From positions 459,037-523,036 of the forward strand of contig JACZXB010000001.1 of NCBI GenBank assembly GCA_022571845.1: a stretch of DNA of 64,000 nucleotides, written 5' to 3'. Every line of letters begins with the position of its first letter. The first letter of the stretch is position 1. Below, in pieces: positions 3,105 through 64,000 of this stretch. The stretch is from Candidatus Zixiibacteriota bacterium (GTDB lineage: Bacteria; Zixibacteria; MSB-5A5; GN15; FEB-12). Below the pieces are notes generated by a model, which saw only the letters and a list, made by a program, of their open reading frames with translations, did no database searches and was not told where the DNA came from. The translations under genes were made by a program, and so were the position numbers.

Positions 3105-4094
3105 TTAGGGAACCTCGACTGCGTCAAAAATCTTATTTACGATATCATCACTCTTTATTTCTTCCGCTTCGGCTTCATAAGAAACGATAATCCGGTGTCT
3201 CAATATATCATGCCCGATTGCCTTAATATCTTCCGGTGTTATATAGCCTCGTCCCTTTAAGAAAGCATGAGCTTTGGCTGCAAGATTGAGGAATATAGAG
3301 GCACGTGGCGAGGCACCATAGGCAATGAGATCGGTTAAATCATCGAGTCCGTACTTGGCCGGTTCGCGCGAAGCAAAAACAATGTTTACAATATATTCTT
3401 TAACTTTGTCATCAACATAAATGTCCCGGATTACGTCACGGGCTCTGAGAATATCTTTGGGCTTGATAACTTTCTTGGCCGTTGGAACCTCTTTGACAGT
3501 ATAGCGATCCATAATTTCGCGCTCTTCGGTCGGTGAGGGATAGTCAATCTTGACCATCAGCATAAACCTGTCTATCTGCGCTTCCGGTAGCGGGTAAGTG
3601 CCTTCCTGCTCTATCGGGTTTTGCGTGGCCAGGACTAAGAACGGGTCATCCAGTTTATGAGTTTCGCCGCCTATGGTAACCTGTCTTTCCTGCATAGCTT
3701 CCAGGAGTGCTGACTGAACTTTGGCAGGAGCGCGGTTTATTTCATCGGCCAGAATTATGTTGGCAAAAATAGGTCCCTTTTTGACGGTAAACTGGGAAGT
3801 TTTCGGATTGTAGACCATGGTGCCGATCAGGTCAGCCGGTAAAAGATCAGGCGTGAACTGGATCCGCCGAAATTTTGCGTCTATGGTATCGGACAAAGTC
3901 TGAACAGCCAGAGTCTTGGCCAGCCCCGGCACTCCTTCTATGAGGATGTGGCCGTTGGCCAGAACACCGATTAAGAGTCTTTCAATCAGAATCTTCTGAC
4001 CCACTATTACTTGGCTCATCTGTTCTGTCAGTTGTTTGACAAACACAGATTCCTTCTCAACTTGTTTTTGAATCTGTTCAATATCAGTATGCAT
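3105..4094 (-). CDS. moxR: MoxR-family AAA+ ATPase
   Basis: Walker A is GVPGLAKT. Walker B and sensor read ILADEINRAPAKVQSALLEAMQERQVT. The length of 329 aa is typical. Confidence 0.9.
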   Translation of the reverse strand: MHTDIEQIQKQVEKESVFVKQLTEQMSQVIVGQKILIERLLIGVLANGHILIEGVPGLAKTLAVQTLSDTIDAKFRRIQFTPDLLPADLIGTMVYNPKTSQFTVKKGPIFANIILADEINRAPAKVQSALLEAMQERQVTIGGETHKLDDPFLVLATQNPIEQEGTYPLPEAQIDRFMLMVKIDYPSPTEEREIMDRYTVKEVPTAKKVIKPKDILRARDVIRDIYVDDKVKEYIVNIVFASREPAKYGLDDLTDLIAYGASPRASIFLNLAAKAHAFLKGRGYITPEDIKAIGHDILRHRIIVSYEAEAEEIKSDDIVNKIFDAVEVP

Positions 4095-40787: not shown

Positions 40788-41987
40788 TTATTTAATTCCA
40801 AACAATTTCTTAAATATGCTGCGCTTCTTCTGCTCTCGTCGTTTAAGCGAAGGCGCCATCTTGGGAGCGTGTGTACCATAATCTTCCATAGCGGCCGAAT
40901 CGCCTGAGGCTGAATCACTACTTGTGATATTTTTTTCACTTTGATTCATGCCGGGATACGGTCTATCATCCATTTCAGAATTTTCCTCTCCTGAAGGGTC
41001 CGCCTGTTTTGCGCCCGGATAAGGACGATACGCAGGAATTCTGTCGTCAGTCGCCGATGTCGCCGGCGTATCGGCTGTAGCCACTTCGGCTGATGGTTGG
41101 CCCTGAACCTGAGGAGTAGCAGTCGGCGCTGCATAGGGATCGTTACCTAAGGGTTGAACCGAAGGATCGGCCAGCGGCCCATCTGGGTCTGGCTGACCGG
41201 CTGGCGGGGCTACAACTTGAGCAGAAGGCTCTGCTACAGCCGGCTGTGATACCGCAGGTGCCTGAGGCGCCGCAGGCACCTGAGGTGCCGCAGGTGCCTG
41301 AGGTGCCGCAGGTGCCTGAGGTGCCGCAGGTGCCTGAGGTGCCGCAGGTGCCTGAGGTGCCGCAGGTGCTTCGACAGCTGTTTTCGAAGTATTGCTTGAT
41401 ACCTGAGAATTTTTAGCTTTTTCCAGGACAAGTTTGATAATCAGTTTGAGCGTATCAAAAACTCCAGTTCCCACAGTAGCTGAAGCCTCAAAAGTAGGGA
41501 AATTATAAGTATTAAGCTTTTGATCCATCTCTTCCGTTGTCATTATATTGGGAAGGTCTCGTTTGTTATATTGAATGACCAGTGGCAGCTGACTAATATC
41601 GTAACCATATTCTTTGAGGTTATCTATCAGGTTCGCCAAAGCTTCAATATTTTCGTCCATTTTGTCAGGCTGACTGTCAGCAACAAATACAACGCCGTCT
41701 ACACCCCGCAAAACTAATTTACGAGTAGCATTGTAGTAGACCTGGCCGGGCACAGTATAGAGCTGAAACTTGGCCTGAAATCCATTGATTGTACCAATAT
41801 TAATTGGTAGGAAATCAAAATAGAGAGTCCGGTCTGCTTCAGTCGCCAGAGATATAAGATCTCCACGTGTTGTGCTGGGCACTTTGGTGTGGACATATTG
41901 CAAGTTGGTAGTCTTGCCCGATAAGCCCGGACCATAATAGACAATTTTGCAGCAGACCTCTCGCGCCGAGTAGTTTATTGATACCAT
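40788..41987 (-). CDS. mglA: MglA-family Ras-like GTPase with a roughly 200-aa proline-rich C-terminal extension
   Basis: Residues 1-195 are near-colinear with M. xanthus MglA ([68 protein letters not shown]). An (APAAPQ)n low-complexity tail follows. Confidence 0.9.
41252..41368 (-). repeat. 18-bp in-frame tandem repeat, about 6.5 copies, encoding (APAAPQ)n
   Basis: The plus-strand unit CCGCAGGTGCCTGAGGTG is repeated head to tail. Four central copies are identical, and the first two carry 1-2 substitutions. Confidence 0.95.
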
Positions 41988-46000: not shown

Positions 46001-46669
46001 TCAAAACTGAGAGACTTGGAAACTACTGTCAGTTCGGTTCTTAAGCTTGATCCGACAGCCTCCGGTTTGCCCAATATCCGTAACTATTTTCTGGTATTTT
46101 TCAGCAGGCAAAAAACCAGCGTCTTTCTGTTCAATTCTTGAACAGACCAGCTGCTCTAAGTTGCTTTGACTTTCGATAATTTTTTCAATTTCCGAGCGGG
46201 CGATCTTACTTCTTCCGCAATAAATAACCAGTGACTGCTTTGCTAAGGAAACTTTATTATCCCCGGACAGAATATTCTCATTTGCTATCAATATCGATGA
46301 ATTATCCAATTCAAGCTCTATTAGATTTTTCGAGGGATAATAGCCCGGCAATAATTTATTAGAATTCTCTGCCGAAAATGACTCAATCGTGATTGTGCCG
46401 TAATTTGCAAAAAGTGTCCGGCTGATGTCCGAAAAGCTCTTTTCTATCCTGGCGTCTACTATGACAGATTTGGCCTGATAGCTAAGGCAGAGTCTGTAAA
46501 TGTCATCGATAGCTCCATACTCCGATGACATCACAAAAACCTGGCCGAGCCCCTCCACACCTAATTCATCAAAGGCCGAGCTGAAAATTCGTTCATCTAT
46601 TGGGTACGGTTTCCGAGTCAAGCCGCTGATTATCAAGTCTGGCACCTGGCTTTGATTCTGATAAATCAA
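46001..46669 (-). CDS. Hypothetical protein, possibly a degenerate C-terminal (MBL-like) remnant of ComEC/Rec2
   Basis: Only a TTG start is available. The frame stays open upstream to the stop at 46736 and there reads IDIFNIPGGTAILIY..LIISG, which resembles the DVGQGDAxLI..LIDxG entry of the ComEC lactamase domain. The C-terminus TDIGQTGGCRIKL resembles TDxxGAI. The metal ligands are not conserved. Confidence 0.4.
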   Translation of the reverse strand: MIYQNQSQVPDLIISGLTRKPYPIDERIFSSAFDELGVEGLGQVFVMSSEYGAIDDIYRLCLSYQAKSVIVDARIEKSFSDISRTLFANYGTITIESFSAENSNKLLPGYYPSKNLIELELDNSSILIANENILSGDNKVSLAKQSLVIYCGRSKIARSEIEKIIESQSNLEQLVCSRIEQKDAGFLPAEKYQKIVTDIGQTGGCRIKLKNRTDSSFQVSQF

Positions 46670-46762
46670 AATTGCAGTGCCACCGGGAATGTTAAAAATA
46701 TCGATTGTGCAAAAGTCATTAGAGCGGGAGCGTAGCTACCCCCGCTCAGATTCAATTATTAG

Positions 46763-46791
46763 TTGACATTTGGTGGTGCTCTGATTATATA
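46763..46791 (+). promoter_or_regulatory. Sigma70-type promoter (TTGACA-N17-TATATA)
   Basis: There is a perfect -35 at 46763-46768, a 17-nt spacer, and a -10 TATATA at 46786-46791. Confidence 0.55.
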
Positions 46792-46797
46792 CCAAAT

Positions 46798-46888
46798 GTA
46801 AGGGTCATAGAACCTTTGCATTGGAAACTCCTTTCTTTTCGCTTGAGTGTTTCCAAATTTGGCCGGTAGCTCAAACTACCGGCTTTTT
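46798..46888 (+). ncRNA. Candidate small RNA of about 90 nt, bounded by a promoter and a terminator
   Basis: It starts about 7 nt after the -10 and has no ORF (ATG-TAA only). Internal hairpins are CCAAATG..CATTGG and GGAAACTC..GAGTgTTTCC. It ends in the terminator at 46861-46888. Confidence 0.35.
46861..46888 (+). terminator. Intrinsic terminator
   Basis: The sequence is gGCCGGTAGctcaaaCTACCGGC followed by TTTTT. Confidence 0.65.
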
Positions 46889-47034
46889 ATAATATCTGTA
46901 CACCCCAAATTTAAGTCAAGTACTTTTTAAATTAAGTTACAATTTATATTCCCCACAAGTCGGGCATATTAACTGATTTGGCGGTAGCTGTAAGGGCTTC
47001 AACTAAAAGCAGTTACGTGCCCAACAGATTTTAC

Positions 47035-47062
47035 TTGACAAAGCCCGATAAATATGTAGCTT
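47035..47062 (+). promoter_or_regulatory. Possible sigma70-type promoter for the HTH-like gene
   Basis: It reads TTGACA-N16-TAGCTT, where the -10 keeps only T1, A2 and T6. It lies about 40 nt upstream of the GGAGG-ATG. Confidence 0.35.
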
Positions 47063-47102
47063 TGCGTTGTCATTACTTAAGCGAAAAACAGGAGGACTTA
47101 CA

Positions 47103-47669
47103 ATGGTAAAAGGTATCGGAAATGACCCTATGGTAAAAGCTCTGACTAAAGAGCTTGAAGAAATACTTCGTAGGGCGGCAGAGATTAAAAAATTCATCAA
47201 TGACACTTACGTTTATCGGGGAGCTTCTCCACTCTATACAGATGTTGATTATGTCCCCGCTGGCGGTACACTAAACCTTGCTCACGATCAATATTTTGGT
47301 AAAGGGCTGGCTACTGCTGGAAAAGAATTTCTTCAAGCTAAGGGACGGGCTGCCCCCTCTGACGAAATTTTTGAAGCTTTCAATAAAGGAGGCTTCGAGT
47401 GGCCTACAAACTGGAAAGAACGAGACAGATTAAAGAATCTTGCAATATCACTAAGCAAGAATCGCTATGATTTTGTTATTGTTCGAACAAGCAAAGGCCA
47501 AGCGTATGGATTGTATGAATTCTATCCTGAAAAAATGAAAGAAAGGGAACGGAAAAAACAGGGGAAATCTAATGAAACTGAGTCTGCCAATAATGGCTCC
47601 CCCGCAACAATTGAAAAGGTTGAATCAACAGAAACTAAGATTGAAGAGAGTAAAAATGAGGGGAATTAA
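47103..47669 (+). CDS. Hypothetical DNA-binding protein with a HARE-HTH-like winged-helix core and a Lys/Glu-rich tail
   Basis: The ATG at 47103 lies 7 nt after GGAGG. The track ORF starts at an upstream TTG. The segment AGKEFLQAKGRAAPSDEIFEAF...YDFVIVRTSKGQAYGLYEFYPE follows the HARE-HTH pattern (compare RpoE ..WGLRSWYP). This assignment rests on pattern recall only. Confidence 0.55.
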   Translation: MVKGIGNDPMVKALTKELEEILRRAAEIKKFINDTYVYRGASPLYTDVDYVPAGGTLNLAHDQYFGKGLATAGKEFLQAKGRAAPSDEIFEAFNKGGFEWPTNWKERDRLKNLAISLSKNRYDFVIVRTSKGQAYGLYEFYPEKMKERERKKQGKSNETESANNGSPATIEKVESTETKIEESKNEGN

Positions 47670-47699
47670 TTTGACTTTAAAGGCTGTATAGTCTACTTA

Positions 47700-47960
47700 G
47701 TGAACGGGCGGGTAATGCCCTGCCTCCCAAAATTATGTTGTCCGTCACACAACGGAGAATAGGGCGGCTCCAGTTGTGACGGAGCCCAAGTAAGCAGTGA
47801 AGCTTACCTGTACAACATAATGGAGGTGCTAATGCAAAGTACCCCAAAGGACAATCTTGCCAAGATTGTCTTGGGCTCAATCACTCGGATAGTGATAGAG
47901 CTTATTCGGAAACTGTTTTAGTAGAAAGAGGCAGGGTAACCCCGCCTATAATTTTGGGAA
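47700..47960 (+). ncRNA. Candidate structured RNA (multi-helix, family not recognised)
   Basis: Nested perfect helices are 47707-47726/47928-47946, 47732-47741/47812-47821, and hairpins at 47741-47783, 47790-47807, 47843-47875 and 47880-47896. An alternative 11-bp pairing joins 47726-47736 and 47948-47958. I chose the plus strand because a hairpin with a T7 run follows at 47996-48020. Confidence 0.45.
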
Positions 47961-47995
47961 ATTCGCTCCTTTCAGTATCTTACAATACCAATTTC

Positions 47996-48020
47996 ACTTG
48001 ACTCATTCAAGTCTTTTTTT
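47996..48020 (+). terminator. Weak intrinsic terminator
   Basis: The sequence is ACTTGActcatTCAAGT, then c, then TTTTTTT. The stem is 6 bp and AT-rich. Confidence 0.4.
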
Positions 48021-48128
48021 GCTAAAAGTCAAACTATTTTTTGCTCCTACCAAAAAATATGTCGGCCAAATTCCCTTAACTCTTAGCAATCCCCATACCT
48101 ATTGTACACTTTTTGCCCCAAAAATAGA

Positions 48129-48156
48129 TTGACAGAGATGGGATAGCCAGTATTCT
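48129..48156 (+). promoter_or_regulatory. Possible sigma70-type promoter (TTGACA-N16-TATTCT)
   Basis: The -35 is perfect. The -10 ends 7 nt before the ATG at 48164, which implies a leaderless mRNA. Confidence 0.4.
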
Positions 48157-48163
48157 TGAGATT

Positions 48164-48424
48164 ATGCAGGTAGTGCTCAATAAAGCTCAGAAAGTGATTC
48201 TTATAATCAGCTTAGCTCTGATAGCTTTCTCTTTTCTATTCCCAACGTGGGAATTTCGCCGAACGGAAATCACCAGAGTCTTAAAGAGGGTTGATTATCA
48301 ATTTATTCTTGCTCCCCCCAAATATAAGACACATCCGATGCAAATAGACTATGGCCGTATGCTGATCCAGATAGTGGTTATCGTAATTGTCGGGGGTGGA
48401 TTGATTCTTGTTAAGAAGTCTTAG
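48164..48424 (+). CDS. Small two-TM membrane protein, unknown function
   Basis: The 86-aa product has TM1 VILIISLALIAFSFLF and TM2 LIQIVVIVIVGGGLILV. There is no Shine-Dalgarno sequence. Confidence 0.5.
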   Translation: MQVVLNKAQKVILIISLALIAFSFLFPTWEFRRTEITRVLKRVDYQFILAPPKYKTHPMQIDYGRMLIQIVVIVIVGGGLILVKKS

Positions 48425-48439
48425 CAATTCTCAAAAATC

Positions 48440-48775
48440 TCAAAATAGCCCACTACCAAATATTTGATAGGTTTGCTTCTCCGAAATAAATCGGGCAACA
48501 TGATTTGAACCAAAATTATAGGTTTTGAGACCGTAATGAAAACCGCTGAAAAAAAAGAGACAAAGAGCAAATAAGATAATCGAAAACCGGGCTGACTCTT
48601 TTTTAAACAGAACCAGTCCGCCAATAAACGAAATCAGACAGAGCAGCAGGAAGAGCCAGCCTGGCGGGCGGACAAAATCTGTGAACAGAATTCCGGCCAC
48701 TACCGGAATCAGAAAAAAAAGACCAGGATATTTTTTTAGCACAACTACATACGGAAAATAATTTTCAGGATCCAC
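48440..48775 (-). CDS. Truncated ComEC/Rec2 N-terminal (DUF4131-like) fragment
   Basis: LKKYPGLFFLIPVVAGILF plus two more TM helices and ..HVARFISEKQTYQIFG resemble the start of ComEC. The ORF stops after 111 aa. The GTG start overlaps the murJ end, and an alternative GTG lies at 48742. Confidence 0.45.
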   Translation of the reverse strand: MDPENYFPYVVVLKKYPGLFFLIPVVAGILFTDFVRPPGWLFLLLCLISFIGGLVLFKKESARFSIILFALCLFFFSGFHYGLKTYNFGSNHVARFISEKQTYQIFGSGLF

Positions 48776-50319
48776 TTGCCGATTTTAACGGCTTCTGAGA
48801 CCCCAAAGATAAGGCAGAAAATAAAATATGCAACGCCCCCGATGCAAAGAATTGAAGTTAGCTCGGCGGCTCTGTTTAAGACCTCGAATTCAATTGAGAA
48901 ACTCAAGTGTGTAATTTTGGCCAGATAAAAGGCCAATGATGCCGCTAAGGCCACTCTGAAAAGATTCAGTAGAATTCTTCCCCAGTTAATTTCAATCGGC
49001 TTGGTTGATAAAAAAACGAGTAACAAAGTTGCGTTTAACAGCCCGGCCAACGATGTAGCCGCCGCCAGACCAGCGAAATCCAGCACCTGAATCAAGGGAT
49101 AATACAAAAGCAAGTTGACTACGACTGTCACCAGAGAAACTCGCATGGGCAGGCGGGAATCACCAAAAGCGTAATAGAAGGGAGCTACAACTCTTACAAC
49201 TGCGAAACCTATCAAACCGTAGGAATAGTGCAATAAAGCCAGCGATACTTTAGAAGTATCTAACTCGTTAAACGCTCCCCACTGATAAATCAATTTGATT
49301 ATCATCGGCGCAATCAAGGCCAGCACTACCGCCGATGGTATCACGATAAAAAAGTTCAGTCCGATTGCCTGCTGAAATGTTTTGCTTAGGTTATCGAAAT
49401 CTTTTTTGGCGACCAGTTCAGATACCTTTGGAAGGGCAACTGTTCCCAGGGCAACGGCAAAGACACCCAGCGGGAAATGCATTAATCGAAAAGAGTAATT
49501 CAAATAAGACAATGACCCCTCAGCCAGAAACGATGCCAGAATAGTACTGACCAATATATTGACTCTACCGGCCGATAGCCCCACGACCATAGGCACAAAG
49601 AGCTTGGTTATTCTTTTCATGCCTTCGTCCAAAAAGTTAAGGCTGGGATAAAAGCGGTATCCGGTCTTAAAAAGTGCCGGAAGTTGTATAGCCAGCTGCG
49701 CCACACCTCCGATAACGACACCTATAGCAAGAGCATATATAGGCTGCTCAAAAAACCGGTGAAATACCAGAACAGTCAGGACTGTACCAAGATTGAAAAG
49801 TGCCGGAGAAATGGCCGGAATGGCAAACTTGCCGTAGGAGTTCAACATCCCCATTACCAGCGAAGACAAAGAGACGAGTAGCAGATAAACCATCATTATT
49901 CTGGTCAGGTTGACAGTAAGATCATATTTTAAGGGATCTGACGTAAATCCGTTGGCTGAGATATAGACTATCACCGGAGCCGCTACTATCCCCAATAGCA
50001 CAATTAGCCCTACAAAAAGCAGTATCGAAGTCGCCACAATATTCGCCAGGCTTCTGGCTTCAGATTCCGACTCATTCACTAATTTTTGCTTGAAAACAGG
50101 CACAAAAGCCGAAGATAAGGCCCCCTCGGCAAACATATCCCTGAGCAGGTTGGGAATTCTGAAAGCAACTACAAAAGCGTCAGTGGCAATTCCCGCCCCG
50201 AAATAGAAAGCCATTACCTGTTCCCTGACAAGCCCCAGTACCCTGGATATAGCTGTTGCGCCCGATACGGAACCGGCTGATTGGGCCAGAGAGCTCTCTT
50301 TCTTATTAACTGTTGACAA
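48745..50319 (-). CDS. murJ: Lipid II flippase MurJ (MviN)
   Basis: The N-terminus reads SRVLGLVREQVMAFYFGAGIATDAFVVAFRIPNLLRDMFAEGALSSAFVPVF. It has about 14 TM helices. Confidence 0.9.
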   Translation of the reverse strand: MSTVNKKESSLAQSAGSVSGATAISRVLGLVREQVMAFYFGAGIATDAFVVAFRIPNLLRDMFAEGALSSAFVPVFKQKLVNESESEARSLANIVATSILLFVGLIVLLGIVAAPVIVYISANGFTSDPLKYDLTVNLTRIMMVYLLLVSLSSLVMGMLNSYGKFAIPAISPALFNLGTVLTVLVFHRFFEQPIYALAIGVVIGGVAQLAIQLPALFKTGYRFYPSLNFLDEGMKRITKLFVPMVVGLSAGRVNILVSTILASFLAEGSLSYLNYSFRLMHFPLGVFAVALGTVALPKVSELVAKKDFDNLSKTFQQAIGLNFFIVIPSAVVLALIAPMIIKLIYQWGAFNELDTSKVSLALLHYSYGLIGFAVVRVVAPFYYAFGDSRLPMRVSLVTVVVNLLLYYPLIQVLDFAGLAAATSLAGLLNATLLLVFLSTKPIEINWGRILLNLFRVALAASLAFYLAKITHLSFSIEFEVLNRAAELTSILCIGGVAYFIFCLIFGVSEAVKIGKWILKIIFRM

Positions 50320-50340
50320 TTTTTGATAAAAGATTAAATT
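50313..50340 (+). promoter_or_regulatory. Possible rpsT promoter (TTGACA-N16-TAAATT)
   Basis: It lies in the murJ/rpsT divergent region. GAGGA sits 8 nt before the GTG start. Confidence 0.4.
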
Positions 50341-50383
50341 TGTCGGGCGAAATAGGATAACAAATGTTTAGAGGAACAAAATT

Positions 50384-50638
50384 GTGCCACTTCATAAATC
50401 TTGTGTCAAGCGGGTGAAAACTTCCGCCAAAGCGCGCGAGCGCAACCGGGGCAAACGAAGCCGACTCCGGGCAGCTATTAAAGAGCTGCGCCTGGCGACC
50501 AGCAAAGACGAAGCTCTGAAGCTTTATAAGCAGGTAACTCGCCTTCTGGACCGGGCGGCATCTGACGGCCTTATTCATAAGAAGAATGCCGATAGAAACA
50601 AGTCCAGGTTTGCAGCAGTTGTCAGCCGTATCAGTTAG
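50384..50638 (+). CDS. rpsT: 30S ribosomal protein S20
   Basis: The product is an 84-aa basic helical protein with KSCVKRVKTSAKARERN and HKKNADRNKSR. The start is GTG. Confidence 0.9.
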   Translation: MPLHKSCVKRVKTSAKARERNRGKRSRLRAAIKELRLATSKDEALKLYKQVTRLLDRAASDGLIHKKNADRNKSRFAAVVSRIS

Positions 50639-50664
50639 TACCATTATCCCTGCCAATATTTTAG

Positions 50665-53189: not shown

Positions 53190-53936
53190 ATGAATAAATC
53201 TACATTTGTCATAGGCGGACTTCTGATTTTTTTTGGGCTGTTTTTCTTGATGGAGTCTATTGGACTTTTCTGGTTTGACTTTGGCGAATTTATCTCGTTT
53301 ATGATTCCGTTTGGTTTGATAGCCTTCGGGGTCTGGTTAATCGTTCGCAAAAAGGACAAAGAGAGTAAAGCGATTACGGTTACAATTCATGAAGACATCA
53401 AAAGCTATGATTCTTCTGCGCCCAAGCCACCAAAAACCGAATACACTTCAGATTCAGTTGCCACTCCTGCCCAGCCTGCAAGTCCAACCCCCCCGGAAAG
53501 CCCGAAGAAACCTGCCGAATTTTTCGGCGCTGAATCCAGCGACAATGCTCAGTCCGAAACTTACGGCAGACTCCGCTATAGTAAGATGTTTGGGGATATG
53601 TATATTGATTGCAAAGGGAAAAAACTTAGTAACATAGAAATATCTACTGGTGTTGGAGATCTGGAACTGAATCTAATTGAAGGGATTTTATCTAAAGGTC
53701 TTAACCGCGTCATCATTTCTGGTTTTATTGGTGATATCCGAATCTTTGTCTCTAAGGAAATGTCGTTTTTTTCTCATTGCTCGAATTTTATAGGAGATAT
53801 CGATTTGAGCGGACAAAGAACCTCCGGATTTGGCAATACTCTGGAGCATGATGATCCCGGCTACGATCAGGCAGAATCAAAACTCTATGTTGCCGCCAAT
53901 AGTTTTATAGGTAATATTAAAGTTTACCGAATTTAG
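53190..53936 (+). CDS. LiaF-like membrane protein (DUF5668-type TM N-terminus + toast-rack-like C-domain)
   Basis: The N-terminal TM pair is GGLLIFFGLFFL and FGLIAFGVWLIVRKK. A Pro-rich linker follows. The C-terminus has repeated GD(I/L)xL/F strands (VGDLELNL, IGDIRIFV, IGDIDL, IGNIKVY). Confidence 0.6.
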   Translation: MNKSTFVIGGLLIFFGLFFLMESIGLFWFDFGEFISFMIPFGLIAFGVWLIVRKKDKESKAITVTIHEDIKSYDSSAPKPPKTEYTSDSVATPAQPASPTPPESPKKPAEFFGAESSDNAQSETYGRLRYSKMFGDMYIDCKGKKLSNIEISTGVGDLELNLIEGILSKGLNRVIISGFIGDIRIFVSKEMSFFSHCSNFIGDIDLSGQRTSGFGNTLEHDDPGYDQAESKLYVAANSFIGNIKVYRI

Positions 53937-63025: not shown

Positions 63026-64000
63026 TTAGTTGGTTTTCAACAACTTAAGACGTCTTTCAGCGTTGCTGGCCATAAAATGCAGGATATAGACGCCGGCAGA
63101 AGTTGCATTCCCCTGGGCGTTTCTGCCATCCCAGATAATAGTAGTATCGGCTGAAACTGTGAAATTATTGACTTTTCCCCAGATTCTTTCTCCGGCAGAA
63201 GTATAAATGGTCAAAGATTGCCATTTCCCTGCTGCTGAGGAAATCAAAAACCTGACTGAGCTTGAAAAGGGGTTAGGAGCTGCTCTGACAAAGTCGGAAG
63301 TCAAAGAACGCACTTCTATTATGAGCCGCGCTGTATCTGCATAATAACCGACATCTGCAACGACGTTCAAAATAGTCTGAATTCCCAGAGCGGCTGAGCC
63401 CGTCACCGCTAAAGAAGCTGTGCCGTTAAGATTGTCTGTCAGGGAAATTCCGGCCGGAACTACTCCTGTCAGACTAATGACAGGAGTAGTAAGAGAGCGC
63501 CCCGAAGCGCTGATTGCAATGATTCTGGTTTGGCCGGTGGTCACCTGGAATATTCCTGACTGGTCAATCTCAATGATATCTGCCGCCCTGGCAGCGTTAT
63601 ATAGTCCATAACCAAAATCATTGTCGGGGCTTTGTGATTTGCTTGCGGTCTGGCGGATTAGTAACAGGGCTTCATTGGCAGTCATTGTCGAATCATGCTC
63701 TAACGCCAGAGCTGCTCCGCCTGCCACTAGCGGGGTTGAAAGAGATGTTCCGGAGGCGATAGTTGTGCCGCCATTGTGGCGGGCGGTAAAGACATTCACT
63801 CCCAGGGCAGCAATATCCGGCTTTATTCGACCGTCGGCCGTCGGTCCCGGGGAAGAAAAACCAGCCAATGTCGAATCGAAATTTGTTGCTCCGACAGTCA
63901 ATACTGAATCACCATCGGCCGGAAAAGAAATCGTGCCCCAAGATTTCAATCTGGAATTGCCGGCCGAATTCACGACCAGAATATTCATTGAAGCTGCAAT
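63026..64000 (-). CDS. Subtilisin-family (S8) serine protease with a T9SS-type C-terminal domain (5' end beyond the window)
   Basis: The catalytic Ser motif is SGTSLSTPLVAGGAALAL, with an upstream NSAGN. The CTD reads APNPFSS..IIWDGRNAQGN..GVYILHF..LKLLKTN. The ORF is open to the window edge. Confidence 0.8.
   Translation of the reverse strand: MAASMNILVVNSAGNSRLKSWGTISFPADGDSVLTVGATNFDSTLAGFSSPGPTADGRIKPDIAALGVNVFTARHNGGTTIASGTSLSTPLVAGGAALALEHDSTMTANEALLLIRQTASKSQSPDNDFGYGLYNAARAADIIEIDQSGIFQVTTGQTRIIAISASGRSLTTPVISLTGVVPAGISLTDNLNGTASLAVTGSAALGIQTILNVVADVGYYADTARLIIEVRSLTSDFVRAAPNPFSSSVRFLISSAAGKWQSLTIYTSAGERIWGKVNNFTVSADTTIIWDGRNAQGNATSAGVYILHFMASNAERRLKLLKTN

Follow-up and report, generated by a model that had tools for sequence, protein, structure and literature searches.

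Introduction

In type I toxin mRNAs, the folding of the full-length transcript, together with its 3' processing, gates an open reading frame (ORF) of 30 aa (PMC5416894; PMC6733600). A long-distance interaction between the 5' and 3' parts keeps the full-length toxin mRNA untranslatable until it is processed (PMC5416894), and the part of the antitoxin is played by an antisense or trans RNA, which forms base pairs with the mRNA of the toxin (PMC8594479). Here, we analyse a 64,000-nt stretch of DNA from Candidatus Zixiibacteriota bacterium (contig JACZXB010000001.1, positions 459,037 to 523,036; the whole stretch is hereafter called the window) and describe a dense, nested, multi-helix and unusually stable folded element of about 255 nt, which lies just 3' of a small DNA-binding-protein gene, ORF188. 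The reading that we tentatively prefer, while regarding it as possible rather than probable, is that of an RNA-level, plus-strand cassette which is co-transcribed with ORF188 and in which the fold gates a mini-ORF. Most known cases of fold-gated control of small ORFs are type I toxins of Proteobacteria, Firmicutes and Helicobacter; if the element is functional, it would extend such control to Zixibacteria, an uncultivated phylum of the FCB group.

By analogy, the folded unit resembles type I toxin mRNAs (hok, aapA1) or leader-peptide attenuators, in the sense of a candidate likeness and not of membership. With hok/Sok and Helicobacter pylori aapA1/IsoA1 it shares the size of the putative mRNA segment (about 250 nt) and of the encoded peptide (about 30 aa), long-distance 5'/3' pairing, a Shine-Dalgarno (SD) sequence that our models show as sequestered throughout transcription, the option of an alternative fold, a location in a mobile or accessory islet, and a nearby small RNA (sRNA)-like gene whose product is complementary to the SD and AUG. 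Unlike a hydrophobic transmembrane toxin helix, however, its predicted peptide is charged and amphipathic; neither a cis-antisense promoter nor a promoter of its own nor any sequence relative was found, and the occlusion of its SD is local and, in our models, independent of the long-distance pairing.

Results

A multi-helix element with two competing folds

On the plus strand, the ORF188 stop codon (47669) is followed, after 36 nt, by the folded unit and then by a hairpin with a T7 run (Table 1). The plus strand was assigned to the unit from this context (coding sequence stop, unit, T-run hairpin, and SD with ATG on that strand) and not from folding energy. All helices named in a first-pass annotation of the bare sequence were recovered to within 1 nt by sequence reading and an inverted-repeat search, and the dense nested fold described there proved statistically exceptional: the minimum free energy (MFE) of a 331-nt stretch is -116.9 kcal/mol vs. 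-84.3 +/- 5.2 kcal/mol for dinucleotide shuffles (z -6.3, 0/100). Among all 260-nt segments of the 64 kb, the unit is one of the strongest folding outliers (GC-corrected z -3.7), outranked only by a coding tandem repeat at 41.1-41.5 kb and by the segment 63401-63660 (z -3.8). Its uninterrupted Watson-Crick helices add up to about 68 bp, the main helices contain no G-U pairs, and some loops are very short, as in the 10+1+10 palindrome GACAATCTTG-C-CAAGATTGTC.

In the ground state, arms A and A' form a closing helix (hereafter, the clamp) with a duplex energy of -33.8 kcal/mol. Enforcing the alternative helix between arms B and B' raises the energy from -114.9 to -107.9 kcal/mol; the net cost of refolding is only about 7 kcal/mol because each half of the clamp, A and A', then refolds as its own hairpin. 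Hence, A alone, A-A' and A' alone constitute three mutually exclusive pairings, and the forced B-B' fold moreover leaves 10 nt immediately 5' of the SD unpaired. The local A' hairpin, which contains one A-C mismatch, is followed by UAUAAUUUU and competes with A-A' pairing; a terminator scan flagged it as terminator-like on the minus strand only. The proposal of two mutually exclusive folds was therefore borne out, with close energies, and the alternative pairing, put at 11 bp by the first-pass annotation, is real and exact but 12 bp long. From the switch-like layout that the same annotation had drawn, the two competing folds remain, but the equilibrium pairing of the SD is affected neither by the clamp nor by the alternative fold, since, whether or not the clamp is present, the SD keeps a probability of about 0.15 of being unpaired in all truncations. 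We therefore dropped clamp-dependent masking of the SD; being independent of clamp and truncation, modelled SD pairing does not support a gating role for the closing helix.

An SD-led mini-ORF within the fold

The stretch between ORF188 and the T7 hairpin had been described as holding no credible ORF, which overlooks an SD-led frame of 29 codons on the plus strand. Here, GGAGGTG (47822-28) is followed after 3 bases by ATG (47832), 5 nt past the GGAGG core, and an alternative in-frame ATG at 47820 would extend the peptide to 33 aa. An SD with ATG and an ORF of at least 25 codons appeared in 62 of 3000 shuffles (p about 0.02). The SD, which is abutted by the 3' strand of helix H3, is buried in a local hairpin, in which the SD has a probability of 0.15 of being unpaired and the AUG one of 1.0. 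The SD is also paired in the MFE structures of all 3'-truncated prefixes: its partner is initially the CCUCC that ends arm A, and later codons 3-5. Given this arrangement, we infer translation of the frame and treat it as a candidate ORF. The predicted peptide has a best 19-aa Kyte-Doolittle (KD) mean of 1.23, four charges and a helical moment of 1.4, and is thus amphipathic. A DUF2292/YezD-like motif was considered for it and rejected as unsupported; only the small ORF of another locus (L031, below) matches that motif, and weakly.

A counterpart unit at a second locus

A unit equivalent to that of the window follows a distant ORF188 homologue at locus L003 (Logan SRR6828272). The homologous winged-helix protein is 47% identical across the alignment and 55% over the best local alignment, and its gene lies inside an operon encoding SNF2, an N6-N4 methyltransferase and ResIII. 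Starting 14 nt past the stop codon of the homologue, the L003 unit (3624-3855, 232 nt, z -4.6) is closed by a helix (AAAATAGCCTGTG... / ...CACAAGCTATTTT) whose arms lie 206 nt apart, as compared with 201-211 nt in the window; it has a GGAGGUG sequestered by an anti-SD hairpin, encloses a 42-codon ORF and carries a U-run 3' of its 3' arm. Hence, the two units share their position after a homologous gene, a similar size (232 vs. 254 nt), the arm spacing, the sequestered GGAGGUG, an enclosed short ORF and a U-rich tract, but differ in their internal hairpins and have no detectable nucleotide similarity. The longer L003 peptide is basic, lacks hydrophobic character (KD 0.2) and bears only a weak similarity to that of the window (Smith-Waterman score 27, shuffle p about 0.01), with three third-position differences in the alignment being synonymous.

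Six loci of the ORF188 family were compared for a long-range 5'/3' duplex; only the window (p 0.016) and L003 (p 0.02) have a significant one. No long-range closure was found in L031 and L034, whose small ORFs are unrelated (DUF2292-like and DUF1508, respectively); a small ORF is absent from L005, and in L002 the closure amounts to just 9 bp, its arms lying 129 nt apart. The pairing of the ORF188 gene with a clamped cassette is thus recurrent, not universal. Structured regions also occur downstream of the homologues in L034 (3685-3944, z -6 to -6.75, overlapping the DUF1508 small ORF and its terminator) and L002 (3505-3800, z -5.5), neither of which has sequence in common with the window unit.

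Table 1. Features of the folded unit and of the islet that contains it (window coordinates; energies in kcal/mol).
Feature	Coordinates	Strand	Remarks
Folded unit, whole	47706..47959	+	Closing helix, three-way 5' domain, SD hairpin, two 3' hairpins, tail arm B'
Arm A (GGCGGG-TAATG-CCCTGCCTC)	47707..47726	+	Self-folds at -11.3; in nascent transcripts the SD is a possible partner of its CCUCC
Arm A' (GAGGCAGGG-TAAC-CCCGCC)	47928..47946	+	Self-folds at -10.1; then UAUAAUUUU, terminator-like
Closing helix, part 1	47707-12 / 47941-46		GGCGGG / CCCGCC
Closing helix, part 2	47718-26 / 47928-36		CCCTGCCTC / GAGGCAGGG
Arm B (TCCCAAAATTAT)	47725..47736	+	Shares 2 nt with arm A and 5 nt with H3; B-B' duplex -13.1
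Arm B' (ATAATTTTGGGA)	47948..47959	+	Single-stranded in the MFE fold
Alternative helix B-B'	47725-36 / 47948-59		TCCCAAAATTAT / ATAATTTTGGGA; perfect 12-bp pair, 100% complementary in the inverted-repeat search
Three-way-junction 5' domain	47732..47821	+	H3 around the hairpins 47741-47783 and 47790-47807; -33.7 alone
Helix H3	47732-41 / 47812-21		ATTATGTTGT / ACAACATAAT; 10 bp
Long hairpin	47741-47783		TCCGTCACA (47741-49) / TGTGACGGA (47775-83)
Small hairpin	47790-47807		GTAAGC / GCTTAC
SD hairpin	47822..47845	+	GGAGGUG pairs with codons 3-5, AUG in loop; -10.8
Candidate 29-codon ORF	47832..47921	+	MQSTPKDNLAKIVLGSITRIVIELIRKLF*; TAG stop 47919-21, 6 nt before arm A'
Two adjacent hairpins within the mini-ORF	47843-75 and 47875-901	+	-15.9 and -13.2; the former 14 bp with a bulge, the latter ATCACT/AGTGAT lengthened by GCTC/GAGC
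Hairpin ACTTGA/TCAAGT with T7	47996..48020	+	Probable 3' end of the ORF188-cassette transcript; -4.3
ORF188 (upstream partner)	47103..47669	+	Coiled coil and winged helix, disordered C-terminal tail
sRNA-like unit	46797..46890	+	Promoter 46765-46793 (TTGACA-17-TATATA), two hairpins, strong terminator; conserved in L004
Mosaic islet, 1,738 bp	46722..48459	.	Holds the sRNA-like unit, ORF188, the folded unit and the ORF86 module

Searches for relatives and known families

The first-pass annotation could not match the element to RNase P, tmRNA, SRP, 6S or any riboswitch, and a scan of the whole window against Rfam 15 at gathering thresholds agrees with this, as it returned 0 hits. At E<=10, the region 47500-48250 gave only noise (best match PrrB/RsmZ, 13.6 bits against a threshold of 44), and ARAGORN found neither tRNA nor tmRNA; known RNA families are therefore ruled out by these scans. 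Nor was there a Pfam match in any frame on either strand of the unit.

Further copies, which would have pointed to a miniature inverted-repeat transposable element (MITE), were sought with exact 17-21-mers representing the 5' arm, the 3' arm, the switch junction, three hairpins and the conserved ORF188/unit junction. No second copy of the unit exists in the window; 185,579 GTDB species genomes and the JGI metagenomes yielded only chance matches of 17-28 nt, the IMG/VR viral contigs nothing or chance matches, and blastn of the unit against plasmids and phages nothing. As far as exact 17-21-mers can show in these collections, and in the window as the part of the source genome that was covered, a dispersed repeat or MITE was therefore rejected. 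Its anatomy differs as well: the repeats are interleaved (A B ... A' B') and not terminal, and the islet junctions (below) show no target-site duplication.

Orthologues of the unit were also sought through its neighbours, with no success by any of three routes: the sole close relative of the upstream gene breaks off 23 nt past the ORF188 stop, ORF86 downstream is an independent module whose other contexts lack the unit, and relatives found by MurJ synteny have an intact comEC and no islet. A group II intron domain V, a retron, guide RNAs of IS200/IS605 or IS110 type and an integron attC site were rejected on their anatomy; no reverse transcriptase, transposase or integrase gene is present in the islet, and Rfam gave no signal for them either. 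The idea of a novel functional RNA, as first put forward, thus keeps its novelty in so far as no Rfam family matches, but no homologue supports a function and folding does not fix the strand.

Transcript boundaries

The unit is probably co-transcribed with ORF188, and the terminator scan placed no terminator between the two. The first-pass annotation had suggested a transcription start from a TATAGT hexamer (47687-92), which we do not retain: it has no -35 box at usable spacing (TTGACT lies 10 nt upstream), the promoter scan made no call there, and an 89% relative (L004) has TATGGT instead. Sequence evidence for a promoter of the unit's own is therefore weak, and no antisense promoter was detected at the unit by the promoter scan. 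As to the 3' end, the T7 hairpin noted earlier is present but weak, and the terminator scan did not call it, its G-C pairs being too few.

ORF188 and the upstream sRNA-like gene

Only 10 homologues of the rare ORF188 protein turned up among 5.8 billion proteins; their alignment shows a conserved core. The AlphaFold2 model has a confidence (pLDDT) of 75, and its best fold matches are the winged helices of forkhead, PadR, Fur and MecI proteins, at weak E-values of about 1e-2. The homologues adjoin tyrosine integrases, Prim-Pol genes, a tRNA-fragment att site, or the SNF2/methyltransferase/ResIII operon; these contexts indicate that the element belongs to accessory, horizontally moving DNA. Phage and plasmid records contained no homologue, and IMG/VR contained one, at a contig end. 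In L030-L033 and L002, the homologues adjoin tyrosine integrases, Prim-Pol and ImmA/helix-turn-helix repressor pairs, and our reading of L005 (1296-1803) finds a terminator followed by a tRNA 3' fragment (att-like) and an IS1595-like zinc-finger ORF. Judged from these neighbourhoods, the homologues of L005, L030-L033 and L002 appear to lie at the edges of integrative elements.

The sRNA-like gene lies 190 nt upstream of ORF188. The CU-rich loop of its predicted product is complementary to the 5' untranslated region, SD and AUG of ORF188 (14 + 5 + 5 bp, -29.3 kcal/mol, 0/1000 shuffles), and at the mini-ORF the SD and AUG find a complementary sequence in its 5' part (4 + 11 + 4 bp, -25.0 vs. -13.6 +/- 2.9 kcal/mol, 0/1000 shuffles). 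The exposed loop fits the ORF188 ribosome-binding site (RBS) better than that of the mini-ORF. It could be that the gene acts as a trans sRNA or as a cis leader that represses ORF188.

A mosaic islet within comEC

The islet replaces 1,297 bp of comEC as compared with close relatives, to which the window matches in blastn up to 46721 and again from 48460. MurJ homologues are labelled Zixibacteria, on which ground a cyanobacterial origin, considered at first, was dropped. The two closest relatives both carry murJ, then an intact comEC of 766 aa, and then a PatA_N/DUF4388 gene; in the window, comEC is reduced to two stumps (ORFs 46001-46669 and 48440-48775). With comEC broken in this way, the lineage has probably lost its competence for DNA uptake. 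That the islet is no artefact of assembly follows from an independent metagenome contig (L001), which reads through both junctions and is identical there. The junctions show neither a target duplication nor terminal repeats. The segment 46792-47692 is common to L004 at 89.5%; the sequence upstream of it in L004 differs, and that contig ends 23 nt past the ORF188 stop. The islet is a truncated mosaic, without the integrase and primase genes found beside ORF188 homologues.

The ORF86 module at the right side of the islet (48117-48427, plus strand) encodes a small protein with two hydrophobic segments and has its own TTGACA-16-TATTCT promoter; at 69-90% protein identity it recurs in the unrelated contexts L041-L044, near insertion sequence remnants. 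The 10-mer CCCAAAAWTA occurs at exactly 3 sites in the 64 kb vs. 0.54 expected, namely at 47726 (arm B), at 47949-58 as reverse complement (arm B') and at 48117 (left edge of the ORF86 module). It may represent a recombination core, or the third copy may be just the A-tract upstream of the ORF86 -35 box.

Discussion

We herein show that a clamp-closed unit with two competing folds and an SD-led mini-ORF follows a winged-helix gene in the window, and that a unit of equivalent architecture follows a homologous gene in L003. Given this, we speculate on how such a unit might work. In the ground state, the clamp would tie the ends of the unit together and H3 would stack directly on the local hairpin that buries the SD; with no single-stranded landing (standby) site for the ribosome, the mini-ORF would be silent. 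The 3' tail B' could then invade arm B, removing the clamp and half of H3, which would free about 10 nt immediately 5' of the SD and would allow A' together with UAUAAUUUU to form a terminator-like hairpin. Possibly, a ribosome that stops at the end of the mini-ORF, 6 nt before A', would keep the clamp open and thereby provide feedback. Together with the winged-helix gene, the cassette would be carried around by mobile and defence islands. Plus-strand transcription, switching between the folds and any phenotype are what we infer from this design.

Several findings weigh against such a fold-gated mini-ORF. The unit has no sequence homologue in any collection searched; the likeness to L003 is a comparison of two units (n=2) with no detectable nucleotide similarity, and the other ORF188-family loci lack a comparable long-range clamp. 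The 29-aa peptide has no Pfam match, a phmmer search of its 33-aa version against 1.84 billion representative proteins gave 0 hits, and it is not hydrophobic enough for a classical membrane toxin (KD mean 1.23 as compared with about 2.2-2.5). Neither the clamp nor truncation has an effect on modelled SD pairing, and the sRNA segment that matches the mini-ORF start is buried in an sRNA stem. Moreover, the minus strand folds equally well (-116.9 kcal/mol, z -6.2; 8 of the 102 MFE pairs are G-U on the plus strand and 11 of 102 on the minus strand), so that structure does not indicate the strand, and the main helices are purely Watson-Crick, which is unusual in an evolved RNA.

The element might instead be a purely non-coding bistable RNA, as the first-pass annotation had it, that is an sRNA or a ligand- or protein-sensing switch in which the three-way junction would be the sensor, A-A' vs. 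B-B' the expression platform, and the SD-like GGAGG and the ORF incidental. Its z of -6.3, two folds within 7 kcal/mol, the compact three-way junction whose 3' strand touches the SD-like sequence, and the lack of any protein-family signal in all frames would suit such an RNA, which, lacking an Rfam match, would be new. With purine- or TPP-like three-way-junction aptamers it shares a Y-shaped domain of 90 nt and a closing helix (H3) that ends at the SD, but it differs from them in giving no Rfam hit even at E<=10 and in showing no visible loop-loop complementarity. Our reading of the loops recognised no characteristic tetraloops or conserved junction motifs, and the equal folding of both strands, the missing homologues and covariation and the lack of a convincing own promoter count against this explanation too; since, in addition, an SD-led ORF by chance has a p of about 0.02 and the L003 counterpart also encloses one, we consider a non-coding RNA unlikely. 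A type I toxin-antitoxin pair, in which the unit would be the toxin mRNA for an amphipathic peptide, the clamp its fold-back inhibition, and the upstream sRNA or an unseen antisense RNA the antitoxin, draws on the size and helical moment of the peptide, on the clamp and sequestered SD, on the location in a mobile-islet remnant, on the sRNA complementarity across SD and AUG, and on the parallels with aapA1/IsoA1 and hok/Sok. The KD means of TisB, Fst and Hok are 2.2-2.5. The four charges and KD of the window peptide, and the basic L003 peptide, do not correspond to a hydrophobic, membrane-inserting toxin; no family member and no antisense promoter were found, SD occlusion does not depend on the clamp, and the sRNA loop prefers the ORF188 RBS. 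We therefore regard this as the least probable of the explanations considered.

Two further explanations were considered, and we hold both for quite unlikely, each somewhat more so than a non-coding RNA. The helices could be a cluster of DNA-level palindromes (single-stranded DNA or cruciform) left by the mobile element of the islet, such as a recombination site, a single-strand origin or priming site, an invertible segment with 12-bp inverted repeats, or a solitary MITE-like relic. This would account for the identical folding of both strands, for principal helices free of G-U and for the very short loops, and it fits the mosaic islet within comEC, the tyrosine integrases, Prim-Pol genes and tRNA-fragment att site next to ORF188 homologues, and the three CCCAAAAWTA sites. 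Bacterial MITEs and REP/BOX repeats are likewise about 250 bp long, intergenic, rich in inverted repeats, able to fold on both strands and found in recombination regions, but the unit is single-copy in everything searched, has interleaved repeats and five distinct internal hairpins, and lacks a target-site duplication. Its nested multi-branch layout is typical of single-strand folding and not of protein operators, the islet contains no recombinase, Rep or relaxase gene, and the third CCCAAAAWTA copy is also explicable by the ORF86 A-tract. Equally, the unit could be a neutral structured 3' untranslated tail, left over from the donor element and now decaying, whose role would not go beyond stabilising or terminating the ORF188 transcript; the truncated state of the islet, the orphan status of the element and the structured regions without common sequence downstream of several ORF188 homologues are consistent with this. 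Without selection, however, about 68 bp of Watson-Crick helices and an exact 12-bp alternative would be expected to erode quickly, and the closing-helix design recurs in L003 at 47% protein identity.

The fold-gated mini-ORF, which we continue to prefer in a tentative way, also invites comparison with leader-peptide attenuators (trp/his, erm/cat). As in these, a short ORF ends shortly before a segment (A') that either pairs upstream with A or folds on itself before a U-rich tract, giving three mutually exclusive pairings. The unit differs from attenuators in following a gene, in having its antiterminator partner 200 nt off with a structured insert between, and in lacking regulatory codon runs in the mini-ORF; the downstream ORF86 is an independent module with a promoter of its own.

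On a broader scale, one might envisage that the window and L003 units represent an undescribed class of clamp-closed bistable RNA cassettes with a fold-gated mini-ORF, paired with a coiled-coil/winged-helix protein, travelling in integrative and defence islands of uncultivated bacteria, with an sRNA that targets the RBS of both partners; they would then form a three-component RNA-protein module for regulation or addiction outside Rfam and the catalogued toxin-antitoxin types. We consider this proposal highly doubtful, only slightly less so than the type I toxin-antitoxin explanation. If the unit is functional, it would tie fold-gated control to a rare family of winged-helix proteins, whose genes neighbour integrases and restriction-like operons, and would give a clue to the role of that family. 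In its design, a clamp with self-complementary halves and a toehold tail, the unit is a clean bioinformatic example of how a bistable RNA can be designed. If it is a mere relic of the insertion that destroyed comEC, its value would be limited to marking a recent loss of natural competence in this lineage.

Other observations in the window

The islet is not the only strand-switched part of the window, contrary to what had been stated: rpsT (50384-50638; identified by synteny with L036/L037) and a LiaF-like gene (53190-53936) also lie on the plus strand, and the minus-strand ORF 50306-50656 that overlaps rpsT is probably spurious. The segment 63401-63660 (-102.6 kcal/mol), the second non-repeat folding outlier, lies within ORF 63026-63988. 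The most stable predicted fold of the window, about -158 kcal/mol per 260 nt, belongs to a self-complementary 18-nt tandem repeat, CCGCAGGTGCCTGAGGTG (41252-41369; 6.6 copies, 95% matches), in the minus-strand ORF 40788-41987, where it probably encodes a low-complexity protein linker.

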